NCBI GenBank assembly: GCA_046726415.1
Contig: JBKPAK010000052.1
Coordinates: 1-12,440, forward strand
Source of the DNA: Candidatus Methylomirabilota bacterium
Lineage (GTDB): Bacteria; Methylomirabilota; Methylomirabilia; Rokubacteriales; CSP1-6
DNA: 12,440 nucleotides
Reading direction: 5' to 3'
Numbering within the stretch: the stretch's first letter is position 1; each line of letters opens with the position of its first letter. This document shows, piece by piece, positions 1 to 12,440 of the stretch. The position numbers and the translations under genes were made by a program. Under the pieces are notes generated by a model. That model was given only the letters and a program-made list of their open reading frames with translations, made no database searches and was not told the DNA's origin.

Positions 1-459
1 CGCGAGCCCGAGTACTACGCCAAGCAGGCCAAGGTGCTCTCGAACTTGATCAACATTCTCGGCTATACGGTGGCGATGTTCATGGCCATCGGGGCAACCT
101 TCGGCGCCCTCAACTGCATGTACTCGGCGATCGCCAGCCGCCAGGTCGAGATCGCCACCCTCCGCGCCATTGGCTTCAACGGCGGCCCTGTGGTCGTCTC
201 CGTGATGATCGAGGCGCTGTTGCTCGCACTGCTGGGCGGGGCGGTGGGCGGGGCCCTCGCCTACGTCTACTGCGACGGCGCCTCGCTCTCGACCCTCAAC
301 TTCAACACCTTTTCACAGGTGGCGTTCGACTTCCGGGTAACTCCGAGCCTCCTGGGGCAGGGTCTGCTGTGGGCGCTGCTCATCGGTTCCGCCGGCGGCC
401 TGTTCCCGGCCATCCGCGCGGCGCGGCTCCCGGTGACGGCGGCGCTGCGGACCATGTAG
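1..459 (+). CDS. ABC transporter permease, FtsX/MacB-like family (3' part; 5' end outside window)
   Basis: Frame is open from base 1 (REPEYYAKQAKVLSNLINILGY...) to TAG at 457-459. It has the 'SRQVEIATLRAIGF' motif, hydrophobic TM segments and the C-terminal 'GLFPAIRAARLPVTAALR' typical of FtsX-domain permeases. Confidence 0.9.
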   Translation, partial: REPEYYAKQAKVLSNLINILGYTVAMFMAIGATFGALNCMYSAIASRQVEIATLRAIGFNGGPVVVSVMIEALLLALLGGAVGGALAYVYCDGASLSTLNFNTFSQVAFDFRVTPSLLGQGLLWALLIGSAGGLFPAIRAARLPVTAALRTM

Positions 460-460
460 A

Positions 461-533
461 TGGGGGGCCCCGAAAGGGCCCCCCAAGCCCCCCGGGCGCT
501 CGGGACGCCCCGGCGGAGCCGGGGCGGCCCTCG
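461..533. repeat. REP-like double-hairpin extragenic element, copy 1
   Basis: Hairpin 1 is TGGGGGGCCC-CGAAA-GGGCCCCCCA (461-485). Hairpin 2 is CGCCCCGGC-GGA-GCCGGGGCG (506-526). It starts 1 nt after the permease stop and aligns along its length with 7657-7726. Confidence 0.8.
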
Positions 534-880
534 ATATCGCGCGGCATTGGGGCGGGCTGCCGCGGCCACGGCCTTCCCGCTCCGGGGGCCGCGGCGGAGC
601 CGGGGCGCCCCTCGATATCGCGCGGCGCTGGGGAGGGCTGACACTGCTACGGCGTTCGCGCTCGGGGGGCCGCGGCGAAGCCTGGGCGGCCCTCGATATC
701 GCGCGGCATTGGGGCGGGCTGACGCGGCCACGGCCTTCCCGCTCCGGGGGCCGCGGCGAGCCGGGGCGCCCCTCGATATCGCGCGGCGCTGGGGAGGGCT
801 GACACTGCTACGGCCTTCCCGCTCCGGGGGCCGCGGCGGAGCCGGGGCGGCCCTCGATCTGGCGCGACGGTTGGGCGGGC
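497..880. repeat. 81-bp tandem repeat array (4 full units plus partial and degenerate flanks; A-B-A-B higher-order pattern)
   Basis: The anchor CTCGAT(ATCGCGCGGC) recurs at 530, 611, 692, 772 and, degenerate, 853, giving periods of 81, 81, 80 and 81. Units 1 and 3 carry ATTGGGGCGGGCTG(C/A)CGCGGCCAC; units 2 and 4 carry GCTGGGGAGGGCTGACACTGCTAC. Confidence 0.95.
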
Positions 881-905
881 GGACCCAGATGCTTTCGGCG
901 GCTCC

Positions 906-1382
906 TTAGGAGCGGCGCCAGAGGCCGCGCTCGGCCTGTCGGGCGTCGCGCTGCAGCTTGACGAGGAGCTCTTGATGGCGGACGTTCGGCGGGATCGTCA
1001 TCACCTGGGCGTATCCGCGGCGCACGAGCTCGGCGTTGACCATTGTCTCGCCTATCCACACGTAGGCGAGGAGTCGCCCGTAGCGGTCGCGCTCCTGCAC
1101 GTCGAGCTCAAGTCGCACTTGGCGCCCTGCGACGAGGGCGCGATTAAGCGCGGCGGCCTCTCGTCCCCCCGGCTGCTCGCCTTTGCTCGGATGATGAACT
1201 TCCGGAGTGTTCACGCCAATGTAGCGGACCTTCTCCACCCGACCGGCGACGCGGACATGAATGGTGTCGCCGTCCACGACCTTGACCACTTCTCCGGCCA
1301 CTCCGGCCCGCGCCGTCGCGATGGCGGTGACGGCGAGGCAGGCCAGGACCAGAAGGAGGACGAGCGAAACAGCCCGGCGCAT
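906..1382 (-). CDS. Thermonuclease (staphylococcal nuclease, SNase-like) with N-terminal signal peptide
   Basis: SNase motifs VVDGDTI, VRYIGVNTPE, DRYGRLLAYV, NAELVRRGYA and ERGLW are present. The N-terminus MRRAVSLVLLLVLACLAVTAIATARA looks like a signal peptide. Confidence 0.95.
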   Translation of the reverse strand: MRRAVSLVLLLVLACLAVTAIATARAGVAGEVVKVVDGDTIHVRVAGRVEKVRYIGVNTPEVHHPSKGEQPGGREAAALNRALVAGRQVRLELDVQERDRYGRLLAYVWIGETMVNAELVRRGYAQVMTIPPNVRHQELLVKLQRDARQAERGLWRRS

Positions 1383-6478: not shown

Positions 6479-6561
6479 GCGCCCTGGCGCGATCAGCACC
6501 CTCACTCCGGTGTCCCGACGTGCGTGTCTCATTCACCGAGTACGGCGCGCCGACCGCGCGC

Positions 6562-6585
6562 GGATTGCCAGGGGCAAAGCAATCC
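6562..6585. promoter_or_regulatory. Inverted repeat upstream of the DUF4394-like gene (possible TF site)
   Basis: GGATTGC-N10-GCAATCC, perfect 7-bp arms, in the divergent intergenic region. Confidence 0.35.
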
Positions 6586-6661
6586 ATTCCTCCGCACGTC
6601 CGCGTATCCCCTCGTGAAGCGCGCGCCACAACGCAACAACGCACAGTCAAGGAGGGAGCAA

Positions 6662-7645
6662 ATGGAAGCTGAGGTTCGGATCGAAAGGCATCTTGGCAGG
6701 TACGTGCGATCGGCGGTGCTGGGGCTGGGCGCTCTGGCGATCGTGGCCTCGCCGAGTCAATCAGCGGCGACCGGGGCCTCGCCTTTTCTGTCCCTGGGGA
6801 GCGACAACTTCTGTAGCCAGATCTTCGTGACCAACACCCAGAACCAACTGCTGCGGATCGGTCGCCCCCGCGAGTTGCTCGGCGAGGATAACTTCTTCTC
6901 GCGGCTCTTCGGGGATACGGTGTTCGTCCGATCGCGCCAGAGCATCACCGGTCTGGCGGCCGGGGAAAGCCTCGTGGGCATCGACGTGCGCCCGGCCAAT
7001 GGGGTTCTCTACGGATTGGGCCGCATCGGCACACAGGCCGTCGCCCAGCTCTACACCATCGACACTGGCACGGGCGAGGCGAAACCCGTGGGGCCGCGCG
7101 CGATTCCGCTGAACGGTGTCGCCTTCGGCGTCGATTTCAATCCAGTGCCGGATCGCCTCCGGATCGTGAGTGATGCCGGCCAGAGCATTCGAGTCAATCC
7201 CGACAATGCCGAGGTGGTGGGCACGGACACGATGATCGCGTACGCCGCGATGGGGGACCCGAACTCGGGCCGTGCGCCCCGGGTGGTTGCCGTCGCCTAC
7301 ACCAACCCGGACACCGACGGCCAGACCAACACCGTGCTTCACGACATCGACGTGGCTCGCGGGGCCGATCCCGATCGCGCCGGGGACGGTCTGGCCATTC
7401 AGGTTCCACCGAACGCGGGAACGCTCAACTCCGTTGGCGCCCTGCGGGTGGATGTCGGTGACGTCGGCGGGTTCGACATCGGGCCCGACAACGAGGCGTT
7501 CGCGGCTCTTCAGCAAGTGGGAAGCGCGTTCTCGCGGCTCTACTCCATCGATCTCGCATCGGGCGAGGCGACGAATCTGGGCCGGATCGGTGGAGGCGAA
7601 GTGGTCACCGGGCTGGCCATCGGCCTCGGGCCGCGGTGCAAGTAG
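6662..7645 (+). CDS. Secreted DUF4394-like (beta-propeller-type) protein
   Basis: Strong SD AAGGAGG before ATG 6662 and a signal-peptide-like N-terminus (RYVRSAVLGLGALAIVASPSQSAA). Family motifs GESLVGIDVRPANGVLYGL, FGVDFNPVPDRLRIVS, VAYTN, QVPPNAGTL and GFDIG. Confidence 0.85.
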   Translation: MEAEVRIERHLGRYVRSAVLGLGALAIVASPSQSAATGASPFLSLGSDNFCSQIFVTNTQNQLLRIGRPRELLGEDNFFSRLFGDTVFVRSRQSITGLAAGESLVGIDVRPANGVLYGLGRIGTQAVAQLYTIDTGTGEAKPVGPRAIPLNGVAFGVDFNPVPDRLRIVSDAGQSIRVNPDNAEVVGTDTMIAYAAMGDPNSGRAPRVVAVAYTNPDTDGQTNTVLHDIDVARGADPDRAGDGLAIQVPPNAGTLNSVGALRVDVGDVGGFDIGPDNEAFAALQQVGSAFSRLYSIDLASGEATNLGRIGGGEVVTGLAIGLGPRCK

Positions 7646-7656
7646 GCCTGACCACG

Positions 7657-7726
7657 TGGGGGCCTCGATATGACCCCCAAACCCCCGCGCGTTCAGAGCG
7701 CCCCGGCGAAGCCGGGGCGCTCCTCG
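7657..7726. repeat. REP-like double-hairpin extragenic element, copy 2
   Basis: TGGGGGCCTCGATATGACCCCCAAACCCCCGCGCGTTCAGAGCGCCCCGGCGAAGCCGGGGCGCTCCTCG, with a perfect 12-bp stem 7696-7707/7711-7722 and GAA loop. Colinear with 461-533 and likewise between convergent genes. Confidence 0.8.
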
Positions 7727-7759
7727 CTGTCCGGCGGCCCCTCCTCGCCCGGCCTTCAG

Positions 7760-9025
7760 CTACTTGTGGCTGGCTCTCTCGCGGGTGCGCTGGAGCATCG
7801 AGCGCACGAGCGTCGCCACCGCCTCGCCCTGCACCTGGTTCACCACCCACGTGGGGAGTGCACCGCCGGGATCGCTGAACACCTCATAGCGCACCGCGGC
7901 CCCCCGGCCCTCCGGTCCGGGCTCGATCAGCCAGCGTCCCCGGATCGACGCGATGCGAATGTGGCTCCGGTCGGGAGGTGGGCCGGCCTCGTTGGCGGTC
8001 ACGAAGACAATCTCGTAGCGCTGGGCCTCGGTATCCACCCGCCTCTGGAGGCGGACTGTGTAGTCGCGATCCCTCGCCAGCGGGATCTCGATCTGCTCGT
8101 ACGCCACCCGCTCGTCGCCCGCTTCCGCGAGCAGATCGAGTCGCTTGAGGTAGGGCACGAACTGAGGATGGTCCTGCTGTCTCCAGACCGTGTCGAAGAT
8201 CGCAGCGGGAGAGAGCGAGCTCTGGGTCGTCGCGCGGACCTCGTAGAACGCCGAGCCTTCGTTGGCCCGGCGCTCGATGAGGAGCCCGTCCTTGTTGGAC
8301 AGGACCTGCCATTCGGTGGCGGACGCAGCCAGCGCAGACAGGATGACCACCAGAAGTGCGGCGATCAGCCCCGCCGATGTCGGGAAGGCGCGGCTCATCC
8401 GGCCGTCGGCGGTATCACCGTCTGGGGCCCCGCCCGTGGTGCGAAAGATGTGATCCCATAGCGGAGAGCTGACACCCCAGCGCGCCTCCGGAGTCGCGAA
8501 ATGATGAAGCATGTGCCAGCGTTGCAAGAATCGCCCGAGCCGCGTGCGAGGCCGGCCACGGTGCGCGGCGACGTGGATGTAGTCGTAGGCGAGATAGCCG
8601 ATCAGGAAGAAGGCGAAGAAGGGCTCGACATACCGCGATCCCAGCAGGGCGCGGAACACGCCGTACAAGGTTGCCGCCGCGATGATGGCGGGGAGCGGCG
8701 GCATCACCAGGCGCGTGGGATCGGCCGGAGTCTCGTGATGGACGCCGTGCACGATGAACTGCAGCCGCCGCCGTATCGGCGTCGTGGCCTCGAGATGGAA
8801 CACGAAGCGATGCAACAGGTATTCCGTCAGGGTCCAGACGAGGAGGCCCGCCCCCGCGAGTAGGACCATCGTGCCAGCCCCCAGCCGAGGGGCCATGGTG
8901 GAGGACCACAGCAACCAGGCGATCACCGGCACCCAGAGCAGGAGCGCGGCCAGCGGATGAGCGTGTGAGAGGCGCTCGAGCAGGCGGTTCTCGAAGAGCC
9001 GGACGCTCCAGACTGAGGTTCGCAT
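7760..9025 (-). CDS. Fatty acid hydroxylase (FA2H/Scs7-like, sterol desaturase superfamily) fused to a C-terminal START/SRPBCC lipid-binding domain
   Basis: His boxes EYLLHRFVFH, VHGVHH, YDYIH and WHMLHHF, plus RLFENRLLERLS, RLVMPP and WGVSSPLWDHIFRT. After a hydrophobic linker come START motifs EWQVL..KDG, ARDRDY, RGRWLIEP and DPGGALPTWVVN. Start is 9025 or 9049. Confidence 0.85.
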   Translation of the reverse strand: MRTSVWSVRLFENRLLERLSHAHPLAALLLWVPVIAWLLWSSTMAPRLGAGTMVLLAGAGLLVWTLTEYLLHRFVFHLEATTPIRRRLQFIVHGVHHETPADPTRLVMPPLPAIIAAATLYGVFRALLGSRYVEPFFAFFLIGYLAYDYIHVAAHRGRPRTRLGRFLQRWHMLHHFATPEARWGVSSPLWDHIFRTTGGAPDGDTADGRMSRAFPTSAGLIAALLVVILSALAASATEWQVLSNKDGLLIERRANEGSAFYEVRATTQSSLSPAAIFDTVWRQQDHPQFVPYLKRLDLLAEAGDERVAYEQIEIPLARDRDYTVRLQRRVDTEAQRYEIVFVTANEAGPPPDRSHIRIASIRGRWLIEPGPEGRGAAVRYEVFSDPGGALPTWVVNQVQGEAVATLVRSMLQRTRERASHK

Positions 9026-9126
9026 GCTGGGCCCCCGCCCAACATACATCGGGCCGGTGGCGGTTGCCTACAAATCGCCCCTCCGGCGGCCGCACGAAGA
9101 GTCACCGTGGACGGCGCGTTTCTTTG

Positions 9127-9132
9127 TATCAT
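9127..9132 (+). promoter_or_regulatory. Putative -10 element for a leaderless transcript of the reductase-SPT-GNAT operon
   Basis: TATCAT in a T-rich patch, with 7 nt between it and the GTG at 9140. No SD precedes that GTG. Confidence 0.45.
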
Positions 9133-9139
9133 CGTCGCG

Positions 9140-10135
9140 GTGCGCACCCTTTTCCTCACCGGCGGCACCGGGTTCGTCGGGAGCCATGTTGCGCAGGAGT
9201 TCCTGGCCCGGGGTTGGAATGTCCGAGCGCTGGTGCGCCGGCCCGAGCGCGCGAGCCTGCTCCCGCCCGGCGTGGAGCCGGTGCGCGCCGACCTGCTCGA
9301 TCCGGCCCACTATCGCAGCGACTTGAGAGGCTGTGCCGCCGTCGTCCACTGCGCCGGCGCCACTCGTGCCCTCAGCCTCGCCGAGTTTCGCCGCACGAAC
9401 GTGTCCGGCGCCGAGGCTGTCGCCCGGGCCGCCAGCGAGTCGTGTCCCGACGCCATGTTCGTCTACGTCTCGTCGCAAGCGGCTGCCGGTCCCTCCCGGA
9501 CCGGGGCGCCAGTTCGGGAGAGTGATGCGTCCGCGCCCGTCTCCTGGTACGGGCGATCCAAACTGGAGGGCGAGCTGACCGTGGCCCGTCACCACCTCGG
9601 CCGCTGGTGCGTGGTGCGCCCGTCCGTGGTGTATGGTGCAGGTGACCCCGGCCTCATCGCCATGTTCCGCGTCGTCGCGCGCGGGGTGGCGCCGCTCCTC
9701 GCAGGGAGCCGTCGGCGCGTGCAGCTCCTCGCCGCCGAGGATCTGGCGAGGATCCTCTTTGCCACCGCGCAGCGACCCGACTTGCATGGCCGGCGAGCCT
9801 TCGCGGCCGGCGACACCGTGAGCGTGGAGGAGCTGGTCCGCGCGGTCGCCGCTCTTCGGACACCGCGCGCGCGCGTCATCGCGGTTCCCGGCCCTGCTGT
9901 CCGCGTCTTGGGAGTGCTCGCGTCCCTCCAAGGGGCGCTCACCCGCACAGCCTCAGCCTTCAACCTCGACAAGGTCAAAGAGATGCTCCAGCCCGACTGG
10001 CTTTGCGACAGCGAGCCCTTCCTGCGGGATCTGCAGGTCACCACGGCCATTCCCTGGCAGGAGGGCATCCGACACACTTGCCGCTGGTACGTGCATGCGC
10101 GGTGGCTGGCGCCCACTGCGTTCGCGGGCGTATGA
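9140..10135 (+). CDS. NAD(P)-dependent epimerase/dehydratase-family extended SDR; candidate ceramide (3-oxo) reductase, CerR-like
   Basis: Motifs TGGTGFVG, VVHCAG, VYVSSQAAAGP, catalytic YGRSK and VRPSVVYG. Start placed at GTG 9140 (MRTLFLTGG). The specific function is inferred from gene context only. Confidence 0.85.
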   Translation: MRTLFLTGGTGFVGSHVAQEFLARGWNVRALVRRPERASLLPPGVEPVRADLLDPAHYRSDLRGCAAVVHCAGATRALSLAEFRRTNVSGAEAVARAASESCPDAMFVYVSSQAAAGPSRTGAPVRESDASAPVSWYGRSKLEGELTVARHHLGRWCVVRPSVVYGAGDPGLIAMFRVVARGVAPLLAGSRRRVQLLAAEDLARILFATAQRPDLHGRRAFAAGDTVSVEELVRAVAALRTPRARVIAVPGPAVRVLGVLASLQGALTRTASAFNLDKVKEMLQPDWLCDSEPFLRDLQVTTAIPWQEGIRHTCRWYVHARWLAPTAFAGV

Positions 10136-10170
10136 CGGCGAGGAACGTTCGCGCATCGGAGGAGGTGTTC

Positions 10171-11403
10171 ATGCCGGACGCTGCGGCACCCCCGGTGGAC
10201 ATCGCTCCAACCCCTCTGCCCGTGTTCGACAAGTGCCGGGTGCTGACCGACCGGGTGGCGGAGGCACGGGCGGCCGACGCGTACTGCTACTTCCGGCCGA
10301 TCGAGTCGGCGCAGGAGCCGGAAGTCGTGGTGGGCGGGCGGACGCTGGTCATGCTGGGGTCGAACAACTACCTCGGGCTCACCAACCACCCGAAGGTGAA
10401 GGAAGCGGCCATCCAGGCGGTGCGGCGCTACGGCACCGGATGCGCGGGCAGCCGGCTACTGAACGGAACGCTCACCATGCACGAGGCGCTGGAAGAGAAG
10501 CTGGCGCGCTTTGTCGGCAAGCCGGCGGCGGTGACCTTCTCCACCGGCTTTCAGGTGAACCTGGGGGCGATCTCCTGCCTGCTCGATCGCGGCGACGCGG
10601 TGTATCTCGACAAGCAAGATCACGCCTGCATCATCGACGGGGCGCGCCTGTCGTTCGCGCACATCCGCAAGTTCGCCCACAACGACCCAAGCGAGCTGCG
10701 GCGCCTCATGGCGGCCGAGCGCGGCGCCCGCGGGCGCCTGGTCGTGGTGGACGGCGTGTTCTCGATGGAAGGCGACATCACCCCCCTGCCGGACATCGTG
10801 AAGGTGGCGCGTGACTACCAGGCCGCCGTCATGGTGGACGATGCCCATGGCCTCGGCGTCCTCGGGCGCCGCGGACGCGGGACTCCCGAGTATTTCGATC
10901 TCGTGGACGAGGTCCACCTCATCATGGGCACGTTCTCTAAGTCGCTGGCCTCCATCGGCGGCTTCATCGCCGGGGACCGCGACGTGATCACCCACATCCG
11001 GCACACCGCCCGGAGCCTCATCTTCTCCGCCGCGCTCGCCCCGGCGGCCGCTGCCGCGGCGGGAGCGGCCGTCGACATCATCGACAGCGAGCCGGAGCGC
11101 CGGGAGCAGCTCTGGCGCAACGCGCGCTTCCTCAAAGGCGGGCTGTCGAGCCTCGGCTTCTGCACCGGCGACTCCCAGACCCCGGTCGTTCCGATCATCG
11201 TGGGCGACGACGACCGCGCCTTCGCGATGACGCGGCGGCTCGATGAGGAGGGGGTCTTCGTCAATCCGGTCATTTCGCCGGCCACGCCCCCCGGCCGGGC
11301 CCTCCTCCGCACGAGCTGCATGGCCACCCACACGGAGGCTCATCTGTCGCGGGCGCTCGAGGCCTGCGCCCGGGTCGGGCGGGAGTTCGGCATCATCGCG
11401 TAG
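10171..11403 (+). CDS. spt: PLP-dependent alpha-oxoamine synthase, most likely serine palmitoyltransferase
   Basis: Motifs GSNNYLGL, YGTGCAGSRLLNGT (the LNGT variant of bacterial SPTs rather than BioF/Kbl), DHACIIDG, DGVFSMEGD, DDAHG and GTFSKSL (PLP lysine). SD GGAGGAGGTG precedes ATG 10171; an alternative in-frame ATG at 10132 overlaps the upstream TGA. Confidence 0.8.
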   Translation: MPDAAAPPVDIAPTPLPVFDKCRVLTDRVAEARAADAYCYFRPIESAQEPEVVVGGRTLVMLGSNNYLGLTNHPKVKEAAIQAVRRYGTGCAGSRLLNGTLTMHEALEEKLARFVGKPAAVTFSTGFQVNLGAISCLLDRGDAVYLDKQDHACIIDGARLSFAHIRKFAHNDPSELRRLMAAERGARGRLVVVDGVFSMEGDITPLPDIVKVARDYQAAVMVDDAHGLGVLGRRGRGTPEYFDLVDEVHLIMGTFSKSLASIGGFIAGDRDVITHIRHTARSLIFSAALAPAAAAAAGAAVDIIDSEPERREQLWRNARFLKGGLSSLGFCTGDSQTPVVPIIVGDDDRAFAMTRRLDEEGVFVNPVISPATPPGRALLRTSCMATHTEAHLSRALEACARVGREFGIIA

Positions 11404-11414
11404 GCGCTTGGCCG

Positions 11415-12440
11415 ATGGCCGGCGAGCTGCGTCTCGAGGAGCTGTCACGCGACCGGGCGGGTCTGCGCCGGTTCCTTCGCGTTCCCTACGGGGTCTACCG
11501 CAACGATCCGCACTGGGTGGCGCCCCTGCTGAGCGACCGCCGCCAGGTGCTCGGTCCGGACAACCCCTTCTTCCGCCACGCGCAGATGGCTCTCTGGGTG
11601 GCGACGCGCGCCGGCCGCGACGTCGGCAGCGTGGCGGGGATCGTCGACGAGCATCACAACGCACGCCACCGCGAGACCACTGCCTTCTTCGGGTTCTTCG
11701 AGTCGGTGGACGACATCGCGGTGAGTCAGCTGCTACTCGATGCGGTGCGCGGGTGGGCCCGCCGCCTCGGGATGACGCGTCTGCTGGGCCCCATGAACCC
11801 GTCGATCAACGAGGAGTGCGGGCTGCTCGTCGAGGGGTTCGACGCGCCCCCAGTCGTCATGATGACCTACAACCCCCGTTACTACGCGGAGCTGTTTGCC
11901 AAGGCCGCGCTCAGGCGGTGCAAGGACCTGCTCGCCTACGATGTGGCCCTGGATGGCAGGCTGCTCGCGCGCCTCGAGCGCCTTGCCGCGCGGGCGCTTG
12001 ACCGCGCCGGCGGGGTGACCGTTCGACCCGTCGCCAAGCGCGCGTTCGCGCGGGATCTCGCGAAGATCCAGGAAGTCTACAACACCGCCTGGGAGGACAA
12101 CTGGGGCCACGTGCCCATGACGCCGGCCGAGATCGAGTTCATGGCCAGACGGCTCGCACCGCTGCTGGAGGAAGAGCTAGTCCGGCTGGCCGAGACGAAG
12201 GAGGGGGCGCCGGTGGGCTTCATCCTGGGTATGCCCGATCTGAACGAGCCTCTCGGCCGGCTTCGCGGCCGCCTCTTCACTCCGCGGTTGGCTCTGACTC
12301 TGCCCTACCTCATCAGGTTCAGGCGTCCGCGGTTTACGCGCGTGATCGCGCTGGGGGTCAAGCGCGAGTATCGACAGCGCGGCATCGACGCGGCGCTGAT
12401 CGCGCCCTGCCTGCGAGCGATGTTGCGCGGCGGCTACCAG
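11415..12440 (+). CDS. GNAT-fold N-acyltransferase, bacterial ceramide synthase (bCerS)/YghO-like; 3' end outside window, absent from ORF track
   Basis: Manual translation from ATG 11415 is open for 342 codons to the window end: MAGELRLEELSRDRAGLRRFLRVPYGVYRNDPHWVAPLL...NPFFRHA...AFFGFFESVDD...GPMNPSINEECGLLVEGFD.PP.VMMTYNPRYY...YNTAWEDNWGHVPMT...PDLNE...LGVKREYRQRGIDA (acyl-CoA-binding motif A). Confidence 0.88.
   Translation, partial: MAGELRLEELSRDRAGLRRFLRVPYGVYRNDPHWVAPLLSDRRQVLGPDNPFFRHAQMALWVATRAGRDVGSVAGIVDEHHNARHRETTAFFGFFESVDDIAVSQLLLDAVRGWARRLGMTRLLGPMNPSINEECGLLVEGFDAPPVVMMTYNPRYYAELFAKAALRRCKDLLAYDVALDGRLLARLERLAARALDRAGGVTVRPVAKRAFARDLAKIQEVYNTAWEDNWGHVPMTPAEIEFMARRLAPLLEEELVRLAETKEGAPVGFILGMPDLNEPLGRLRGRLFTPRLALTLPYLIRFRRPRFTRVIALGVKREYRQRGIDAALIAPCLRAMLRGGYQ

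Follow-up and report, generated by a model that had tools for sequence, protein, structure and literature searches.

A Membrane Hydroxylase Fused to a Putatively Exported START Domain at a Putative Ceramide-Synthesis Locus of a Methylomirabilota Bacterium, and Its Split Relatives

Introduction

Sphingolipid synthesis is now attributed to a large number of bacterial phyla. Here we describe a fused gene in the window, i.e., the whole stretch of DNA that was analysed (12,440 nucleotides of contig JBKPAK010000052.1, assembly GCA_046726415.1, Candidatus Methylomirabilota bacterium), in which a membrane hydroxylase of the Scs7/FA2H type, a signal-peptide-like helix and a START domain follow one another within a single open reading frame (ORF). 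The junction between the two parts is bridged by sequence from other assemblies, and in the closest relatives the two parts are separate, adjacent genes. According to the explanation that we favour with moderate confidence, the protein combines a ceramide acyl 2-hydroxylase facing the cytoplasm with a periplasmic START lipid carrier, probably of ceramide, and their fusion is a tolerated accident.

Serine palmitoyltransferase (Spt), bCerS and CerR make up the bacterial ceramide pathway, and their genes are often clustered (PMC11087976, PMC11334938). The Caulobacter enzymes Spt and bCerS reside in the cytoplasm, and CerR in the periplasm; in the authors' interpretation, export of the acylated lipid to the periplasm precedes its reduction, so that ceramide chemistry continues there (PMC11087976). 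The accessible text of these two papers names the synthesis enzymes, and mentions neither a hydroxylase–START module nor a carrier that moves ceramide through the periplasm (PMC11087976, PMC11334938). The same three enzyme families are clustered next to the module of the window, whose CerR-like protein, unlike the periplasmic CerR of Caulobacter, has no evident signal peptide.

The hydroxylase shares with Scs7p and FA2H its membrane domain, aligned over residues 25–210 at 33% identity with all four His motifs, as well as a sphingolipid setting, here in the form of the gene neighbourhood. It differs from them in being bacterial and of only ~205 aa, in lacking the N-terminal cytochrome b5 domain, and in having an export signal and then a START domain behind it. 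A b5-less FA2H homologue occurs in myxobacteria.

Among START proteins, CERT (STARD11) has the same helix-grip fold (TM 0.65–0.71), and the START of the window is tied genetically to ceramide synthesis; the role proposed here, by analogy with CERT, would likewise be to carry ceramide through water between two membranes. The PH domain and FFAT motif of CERT are not present in the window protein, as judged from Pfam and the structural model, and CERT is cytosolic, whereas the START of the window is predicted to be exported to the periplasm. PCTP (STARD2; 1LN1) is the closest sequence match over the whole domain, and both share a DWQxL domain start; PCTP is a cytosolic animal protein, in contrast, and nothing indicates phosphatidylcholine here. 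The START of Xanthomonas axonopodis (3QSZ) is bacterial and was crystallised as fragment 25–204, with its first 24 residues left off; its identity to the window START is only 20–21%, and the title of the entry gives no function.

The Fused Protein and Its Domains

Positions 7760–9049 of the window (minus strand) form a single uninterrupted ORF of 429 aa, with its stop codon at 7760–7762. A sequence-only reading of this DNA had placed the gene at 7760–9025; the frame is the same, but the ORF starts at 9049, and the ATG at 9025 (M9) is the second in-frame one and could serve as a start instead. That reading had also stated that no stop lies between the end of the hydroxylase (WDHIFRT) and the START domain, and that an ATG at 8398 (M218) is followed by MSRAFPTSAGLIAALLVVILSALAASA|TEW, both of which are confirmed. 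Four parts can be distinguished on the minus strand. The hydroxylase, residues 1–205 (8435–9049), is delimited by Pfam, the Scs7p match, Foldseek, the His motifs and hydropathy. Residues 206–217 (8399–8434) are a new linker, the GAPDGDTADGR region, which arose through the frame change and holds a relic TGA out of frame (8417–8415). The former start codon of START and a Sec-type signal peptide (M218–A244; 8318–8398) come next, as judged by hydropathy, the structural model and the N-termini of the family, so that the sequence between the domains reads GAPDGDTADGR-MSRAFPTSAGLIAALLVVILSALAASA|TEW. The mature START domain occupies residues 245–429 (7763–8317), in agreement with Pfam, matches to the Protein Data Bank (PDB), Foldseek and model confidence. 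In an AlphaFold2 (AF2) model of the 429-aa protein, built on a 61-row alignment with a mean predicted local distance difference test score (pLDDT) of 87.4, the hydroxylase and START are both confident, a helix spans residues 224–241, and the linker at 217–222 is of low confidence.

The hydroxylase matches FA_hydroxylase (Pfam PF04116) at residues 67–204 with 63.2 bits against a cut-off of 31. In a search of solved structures, residues 25–210 match yeast Scs7p, which 2-hydroxylates the very-long-chain fatty acid of ceramide (PDB 4zr0/4zr1; E 1.4e-24 for 4zr1), and Foldseek aligns the domain to 4zr0 with a TM of 0.65 by target, which bears out the earlier assignment to the FA2H/Scs7 type. All four His motifs of the di-metal centre are intact (HRFVFH at 80, HGVHH at 101, HVAAH at 159 and HMLHH at 179) and align with those of Scs7p. 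The AF2 helices at 32–52, 58–84, 118–136 and 138–164 form a four-helix membrane domain like that of Scs7p, three of the four being detected by hydropathy alone. The N-terminus begins ~30 residues before the first membrane helix, and a Pfam scan of the fused protein gave no match to cytochrome b5 (PF00173), a domain which the eukaryotic matches P0114–P0116 do carry. In the published structure of Scs7p, the His cluster and the C-terminus face the cytoplasm. By analogy, this di-metal hydroxylase most likely acts from the cytoplasmic side and adds a 2-hydroxyl group to the N-acyl chain of ceramide, a substrate assignment suggested by the similarity to Scs7p together with the gene neighbourhood. 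As a separate observation, two proteins, P0019 (522 aa) and P0022 (504 aa), have an N-terminal FA_desaturase (PF00487) fused to a hydroxylase of the same family, 55–59% identical to that of the window; they represent a second fusion type, which may be a sphingolipid desaturase-hydroxylase.

As had been proposed, the protein ends in a genuine START domain. It matches START (PF01852) at residues 240–423 (27.7 bits against a cut-off of 22), as well as Polyketide_cyc (PF03364) at 279–418, above the gathering score. Residues 241–420 match phosphatidylcholine transfer protein (PCTP, 1ln1) at E 1.8e-12, the START part as a whole matches it at E 6e-13, and the Xanthomonas START 3qsz is matched at E 8e-8. 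By structure, 3qsz is the best match of the START part in Foldseek (TM 0.87, root-mean-square deviation 2.0 over 179 residues), which also returned STARD10, PCTP and many CERT START entries, with more than 40 START structures among the top matches. The AF2 strands at 248–393 and the C-terminal helix at 400–428, with pLDDT mostly above 90, make up the helix-grip fold.

The earlier suggestion of a signal-peptide-like helix in the linker is likewise upheld by hydropathy, the model and the family as a whole. Residues 226–244 are the most hydrophobic 19-mer of the entire protein (Kyte-Doolittle 2.47), and the segment has the layout of a signal peptide, namely the n-region MSR, the h-region LIAALLVVILSAL and a c-region A-S-A|T directly before the mature domain; signal peptidase is predicted to cleave after A244. 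Among the 125 family members whose N-terminus is on record, a crude rule-based test, as opposed to a trained predictor, found a hydrophobic 12-mer (at least 1.6) just before the domain in 116, a small-x-small site behind the hydrophobic stretch in 121, and Lys or Arg in front of it in 108; the nine members without the stretch are short gene calls that look truncated. Fused forms keep the cleavage site, A-S-A|T in the window and similar residues in P0002–P0007. Thus, the family carries an export signal, and its members would be Sec-exported periplasmic proteins.

The Junction and Its Split Relatives

The window stretch 7700–9100 was compared with Logan contigs of four soil sequencing runs (X1–X4), of which X2 covers only the ends of the stretch and X4 does not bridge the junction, so that neither bears on it. 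A 575-nt contig of X1, a run that may be the source sample, covers 8223–8797 with 0 differences and 0 gaps. From X3, which belongs to another study, a 193-nt contig covers 8342–8534 with 0 differences at a depth of 16.7. Both contigs bridge 8398–8445, the stretch that had been singled out for confirmation, and as judged from these contigs the junction is real DNA. A second and more abundant X3 contig (depth 42.1) has 12 substitutions over 8387–8534 and one extra base behind 8423, which, with the frame read by hand, brings the hydroxylase onto the TGA at 8417–8415, 16 nt before the ATG. By this frame reading, the X3 variant would be a split form with the hydroxylase stop restored. In-frame 3-nt insertions behind 8385 and 8317 (in X3 or X4) correspond to an additional Ser and Ala in the standalone START proteins P0123 and P0124. 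Fused and split alleles therefore coexist in nature, at ~92% nucleotide similarity.

A search with the entire protein found 122 proteins at E ≤ 0.001 among 8000 scored candidates, including five full-length fusions (P0002–P0006; 404–426 aa, 54–68% identity) and the fused fragment P0007, the other matches being hydroxylase-only or START-only. A search with START alone gave 147 proteins at E ≤ 1e-5 among 2508 candidates. Its best matches, P0123 and P0124, are 94% identical standalone proteins of 214 aa that begin at the same Met (M218), and one of the two stands for a cluster of 23 sequences on 12 contigs. Only five of 7999 scored candidates of 372–2000 aa carry this START, and all five are hydroxylase fusions.

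At the level of loci, the pair is split in five of the seven genome loci that have it, the fused ones being the window and L013, whose linker is trimmed. Two split loci are from the same genus: G002 has an ATGA overlap, and G001 (L008) has the TGA, a 16-nt spacer and then an ATG at the matching place. The overlap of stop and start measures 14 nt in G146 (L010), 4 nt in G176 (L012) and 1 nt in G155 (L015). The START of G001 is itself frameshifted in its signal-peptide region (L008, ~9900–10010), in which P0128 is intact, pointing to an insertion or deletion error of the metagenome-assembled genome (MAG) or to a pseudogene. In metagenomes, the hydroxylase lies directly upstream in 12 of 62 START loci; ten of these are split, and the two fused ones (L030, L031) are both of the L013 type. 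The string CGG-ATG-A of the window was considered as a relic of an ATGA stop/start overlap, as found in G002 and G176, and was rejected, since G001 and the X3 variant show the TGA, the 16-nt spacer and the ATG.

The distribution of the fused forms was followed on a quick IQ-TREE tree of 132 START domains (245 sequences, of which 133 aligned over at least 150 residues, less the duplicate P0122). Its eight fused rows need seven changes, and the starred branches also force seven; shuffled labels need 7.8 on average, with 72 of 500 shuffles as low as seven. Fused clades contain standalone members, such as P0192, which has its own Met and stands next to P0005 and L013. These results suggest that fusion is recurrent, shallow and mostly short-lived, with the hydroxylase as the only partner. 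The fused architecture is not conserved; what is conserved is the gene pair, a hydroxylase followed by a START with a Sec-type export signal. The sequence-only reading had treated the fusion as a designed architecture, and had named two-gene homologues or a strain-specific loss of the stop as findings that would count against it. Such findings were made: the closest relatives are split, the X3 strain at ~92% similarity has the frame-restoring base, and fused forms are scattered tips.

Putative Ceramide Gene Neighborhood

Three genes on the plus strand lie divergent from the hydroxylase–START gene. The first, at 9107–10135, encodes an NAD-dependent epimerase/reductase (PF01370) that is CerR-like by position. 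It is followed at 10168–11403 by an Spt-like alpha-oxoamine synthase, whose best family is NCBIfam NF047600, and at 11415–12440, running off the window, by a GNAT-type acyltransferase that is bCerS-like by position, with a weak match to PF00583 and GNAT clusters as its Atlas neighbours. The sphingolipid link drawn earlier from the sequence is supported by this Spt-like enzyme and the reductase and acyltransferase adjoining it.

The order GNAT-Spt-CerR, divergent from hydroxylase–START, is found in the window, L008, L009, L010 and L012, and also in L013 except that no CerR is matched there. It recurs in the metagenome loci L019, L020, L022, L023, L068 and L077; L030 and L031 have the L013 layout without a CerR match, and shorter contigs hold parts of the order. 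In a phylum sample of 251 genomes, START is present at E ≤ 1e-10 in 22, with at least 54% identity in only seven, and Spt at E ≤ 1e-120 in 33 (including the unpublished genomes G074 and G084), with at least 81% identity in only six. These six are exactly the six with the hydroxylase–START pair, although in G155 the pair and Spt are on different contigs. The best explanation of the window is a ceramide-synthesis locus of a Rokubacteria-like (Methylomirabilota) soil bacterium that is diderm, because pqiABC and a gene for an outer-membrane beta-barrel protein are present in its genome.

At three metagenome loci (L035, L036 and L070), START is divergent from CerR with no hydroxylase between; the START of L036 has 222 aa and its own signal peptide. 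Because START adjoins CerR in these hydroxylase-less loci, it is tied to the ceramide cluster and not only to hydroxylation. Separately, the START proteins P0009, P0018, P0023 and P0030 retain a vestige of the N-terminal hydroxylase sequence (LFENDLLERLSH...) immediately in front of their membrane helix. Such remnant-bearing proteins and the hydroxylase-less CerR-linked loci look like cases of hydroxylase deletion in which START was retained.

Proposed Explanation

In the explanation that we favour, a single base would have been lost some six to eight codons ahead of the stop of the hydroxylase, and the hydroxylase frame therefore passes the old TGA as well as the old START start codon, resulting in one 429-aa protein. 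By analogy with Scs7p, the C-terminus of the hydroxylase would be cytoplasmic, so that the former signal peptide would insert as a fifth helix (N-in, C-out) and START would come to lie in the periplasm. Signal peptidase I would probably cut after A-S-A and free the same soluble START as in the split relatives. If fused and split genes give the same products, this would explain why single-base fusions recur, are tolerated and are not quickly purged. The cargo of START, most likely ceramide or a similar N-acyl lipid, would be picked up at the outer leaflet of the inner membrane and would then travel through the periplasm to the outer membrane or to a Pqi-type conduit. Gene order, co-occurrence and the exclusive fusion partner suggest ceramide as the ligand. 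The earlier notion that START may move ceramide holds up in this reading and gains weight from the conserved gene order and from the paralogues behind pqi genes (see below), which link the family to lipid traffic in the envelope.

Several points weigh against this explanation. The Spt-like protein reaches E 5e-160 and 532 bits with NF047600, which is under the 640-bit equivalog cut-off, and CerR and bCerS are assigned only by protein family, gene position and synteny. The solved START that comes nearest in sequence is PCTP and not CERT, which had no match at E ≤ 1 when the fused protein and START were searched against solved structures. That signal peptidase would cut an internal signal peptide located after a polytopic protein is a prediction, albeit a probable one, and we infer the substrate of the hydroxylase, the cleavage, the ligand and the direction of transport. 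The ORF, its domains, the junction, the split relatives, the gene contexts and the export signal are themselves observed. Moreover, the genes beside other START members, described below, and the sequence similarity to PCTP are compatible with a wider or different range of lipids.

Alternative Explanations

The best surviving alternative, and in our view a rather unlikely one, is that START is a general periplasmic carrier, or one specific for a lipid other than a sphingolipid (a glycerophospholipid, another N-acyl aminolipid, a hopanoid or a sterol), and that its position beside the ceramide genes reflects envelope remodelling and not ceramide transport. Besides PCTP being the best PDB sequence match, the occurrence of paralogues in pqi operons favours it. 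The second START of this genome is 63–67% identical, 230 aa long, with a signal peptide ending in V-A-S-A|E and a PF01852 match of 47.2 bits. It is the last gene of a pqiA-pqiA-pqiB-pqiC-START operon on contig C230 (L007:4449–9022, minus strand), in which PqiB (601 aa) has three MlaD stretches and PqiC is an ABC_trans_aux lipoprotein. The pqi–START order also occurs in L014, from a MAG of the Methylomirabilia in which PqiB and PqiC show only 33–35% identity, and START stands behind pqiB-pqiC in 11 of the 62 metagenome loci; the two Pqi-linked START groups fall in different clades of the tree. The PqiABC system for MCE-type lipid transport thus has paralogues of the window START encoded directly behind pqiB-pqiC, and in Escherichia coli it is reported, in the accessible part of a preprint, to move glycerophospholipids (bioRxiv 10.64898/2026.09.15.751761). 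What differs from the described PqiABC is the START partner; a Pqi operon with a START gene in fifth place was not found in a literature search covering open-access papers and preprints. Concerning the same operon, the Pqi and START proteins of L011, a MAG labelled 'Actinomycetota bacterium', are 99–100% identical to those of C230; genus-level relatives carry Rokubacteria labels, and the label of L011 is probably wrong.

A further gene setting also speaks for a wider cargo. In 16 of the 62 metagenome loci, START is divergent from another GNAT, 31–40% identical to the bCerS-like one. At L033 (758–5582), the sole such locus examined, the neighbour of this GNAT is a protein of 910 aa that contains an aminotransferase class-III domain, and two fatty-acid desaturases as well as an LEA_2 protein are encoded within a few kb; in L054, L065 and L067, the GNAT is upstream of pqi genes. 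The GNAT-linked loci may represent another N-acyl lipid pathway, and the START family may carry other N-acyl lipids. The remaining metagenome START loci comprise 14 with less than 700 nt upstream and six with none of these neighbours. Against a general carrier stand the persistence of START next to CerR-Spt-GNAT in the hydroxylase-linked clades even after loss of the hydroxylase (three loci), the six-out-of-six co-occurrence with the close Spt clade in the phylum, and the sphingolipid-type hydroxylase as sole fusion partner.

We regard as improbable that the protein is a selected bifunctional enzyme, in which START is tethered to the hydroxylase and ceramide modification is coupled to extraction, as the sequence-only reading had envisaged. 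The fused ORF is real, and the only fusion partner of this START is the hydroxylase (5/5). Moreover, the fused type with the trimmed linker (P0005, L013, L030 and L031) stands for a 90%-identity cluster of 35 sequences and is present in one genome and two metagenome contigs, so that at least one lineage keeps the fusion. The nearest relatives are nonetheless split, the fused rows on the tree are no more clustered than shuffled labels, and standalone members such as P0192 sit within fused clades. Judging by the similarity to Scs7p and by the export signal, the catalytic histidines would be cytoplasmic and START would lie on the opposite face of the membrane, which makes a direct coupling of hydroxylation to extraction unlikely, and the A-x-A site is retained in the fused forms.

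That the fusion is an assembly or sequencing error of the MAG is hardly credible: although the frame change sits in a G/C-run region (GGGCGGGGCCCC) and the same-genus MAG G001 is frameshifted inside its START signal peptide, where the intact metagenome P0128 is not, an assembly-private error is unlikely because difference-free contigs from two runs of different studies, X1 and X3, bridge the junction, and with the fused form lying beside the split variant in X3, the artefact reading is nearly excluded.

Other Features of the Window

The G+C content of the window is very high, and a scan of 7600–9200 found neither a sigma-70 promoter nor an intrinsic terminator. A gene for a DUF4394 protein (6524–7645, plus strand; E 7e-68) is convergent with the fused gene, and the spacer between the two contains a GC-rich inverted repeat (~7701–7728) without a T-tail, at which the terminator scan was negative. 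At 460–909 (plus strand) and 267–731 (minus strand), long repetitive Arg/Pro/Gly-rich ORFs occur on both strands (with repeats such as GPRRSRGAPRYRAALGRA); the region, which lies between an FtsX-like and an SNase-like gene, resembles a tandem DNA repeat.

Conclusions

START domains, Scs7-type hydroxylases and bacterial ceramide clusters are already known, and the fusion, of modest interest in itself, is an accident at the level of the strain. It provides a clean example of adjacent, often overlapping genes being fused by a single-base change with the membrane topology unbroken. In a search of open-access papers and preprints, a Sec-exported START family tied to ceramide genes and pqiABC was not found; the literature found on bacterial sphingolipids together with START domains was restricted to eukaryotic CERT or Chlamydia work, and titles and abstracts on Rokubacteria and sphingolipids held nothing relevant. 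Nothing was found there on bacterial ceramide synthase and Spt together with a hydroxylase, nor on a myxobacterial 2-hydroxylase. The START family described here, predicted to be secreted, is encountered in three settings, namely next to the ceramide genes, whether or not the hydroxylase is there too, downstream of pqiABC, and from time to time in fusion with the hydroxylase, and it is therefore a concrete, cloneable candidate for periplasmic ceramide transport. We tentatively suggest that these proteins could be the bacterial counterpart of CERT, i.e., soluble periplasmic carriers that collect (2-hydroxy)ceramide at the inner membrane and hand it to the outer one, with a dedicated PqiABC conduit serving for this in some lineages; the idea is doubtful enough to be held as a conjecture. 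If it is true, the sporadic hydroxylase fusions would serve as natural 'Rosetta stone' evidence for the link, and the family would be the first candidate machinery for the unexplained step that brings bacterial sphingolipids to the outer membrane.

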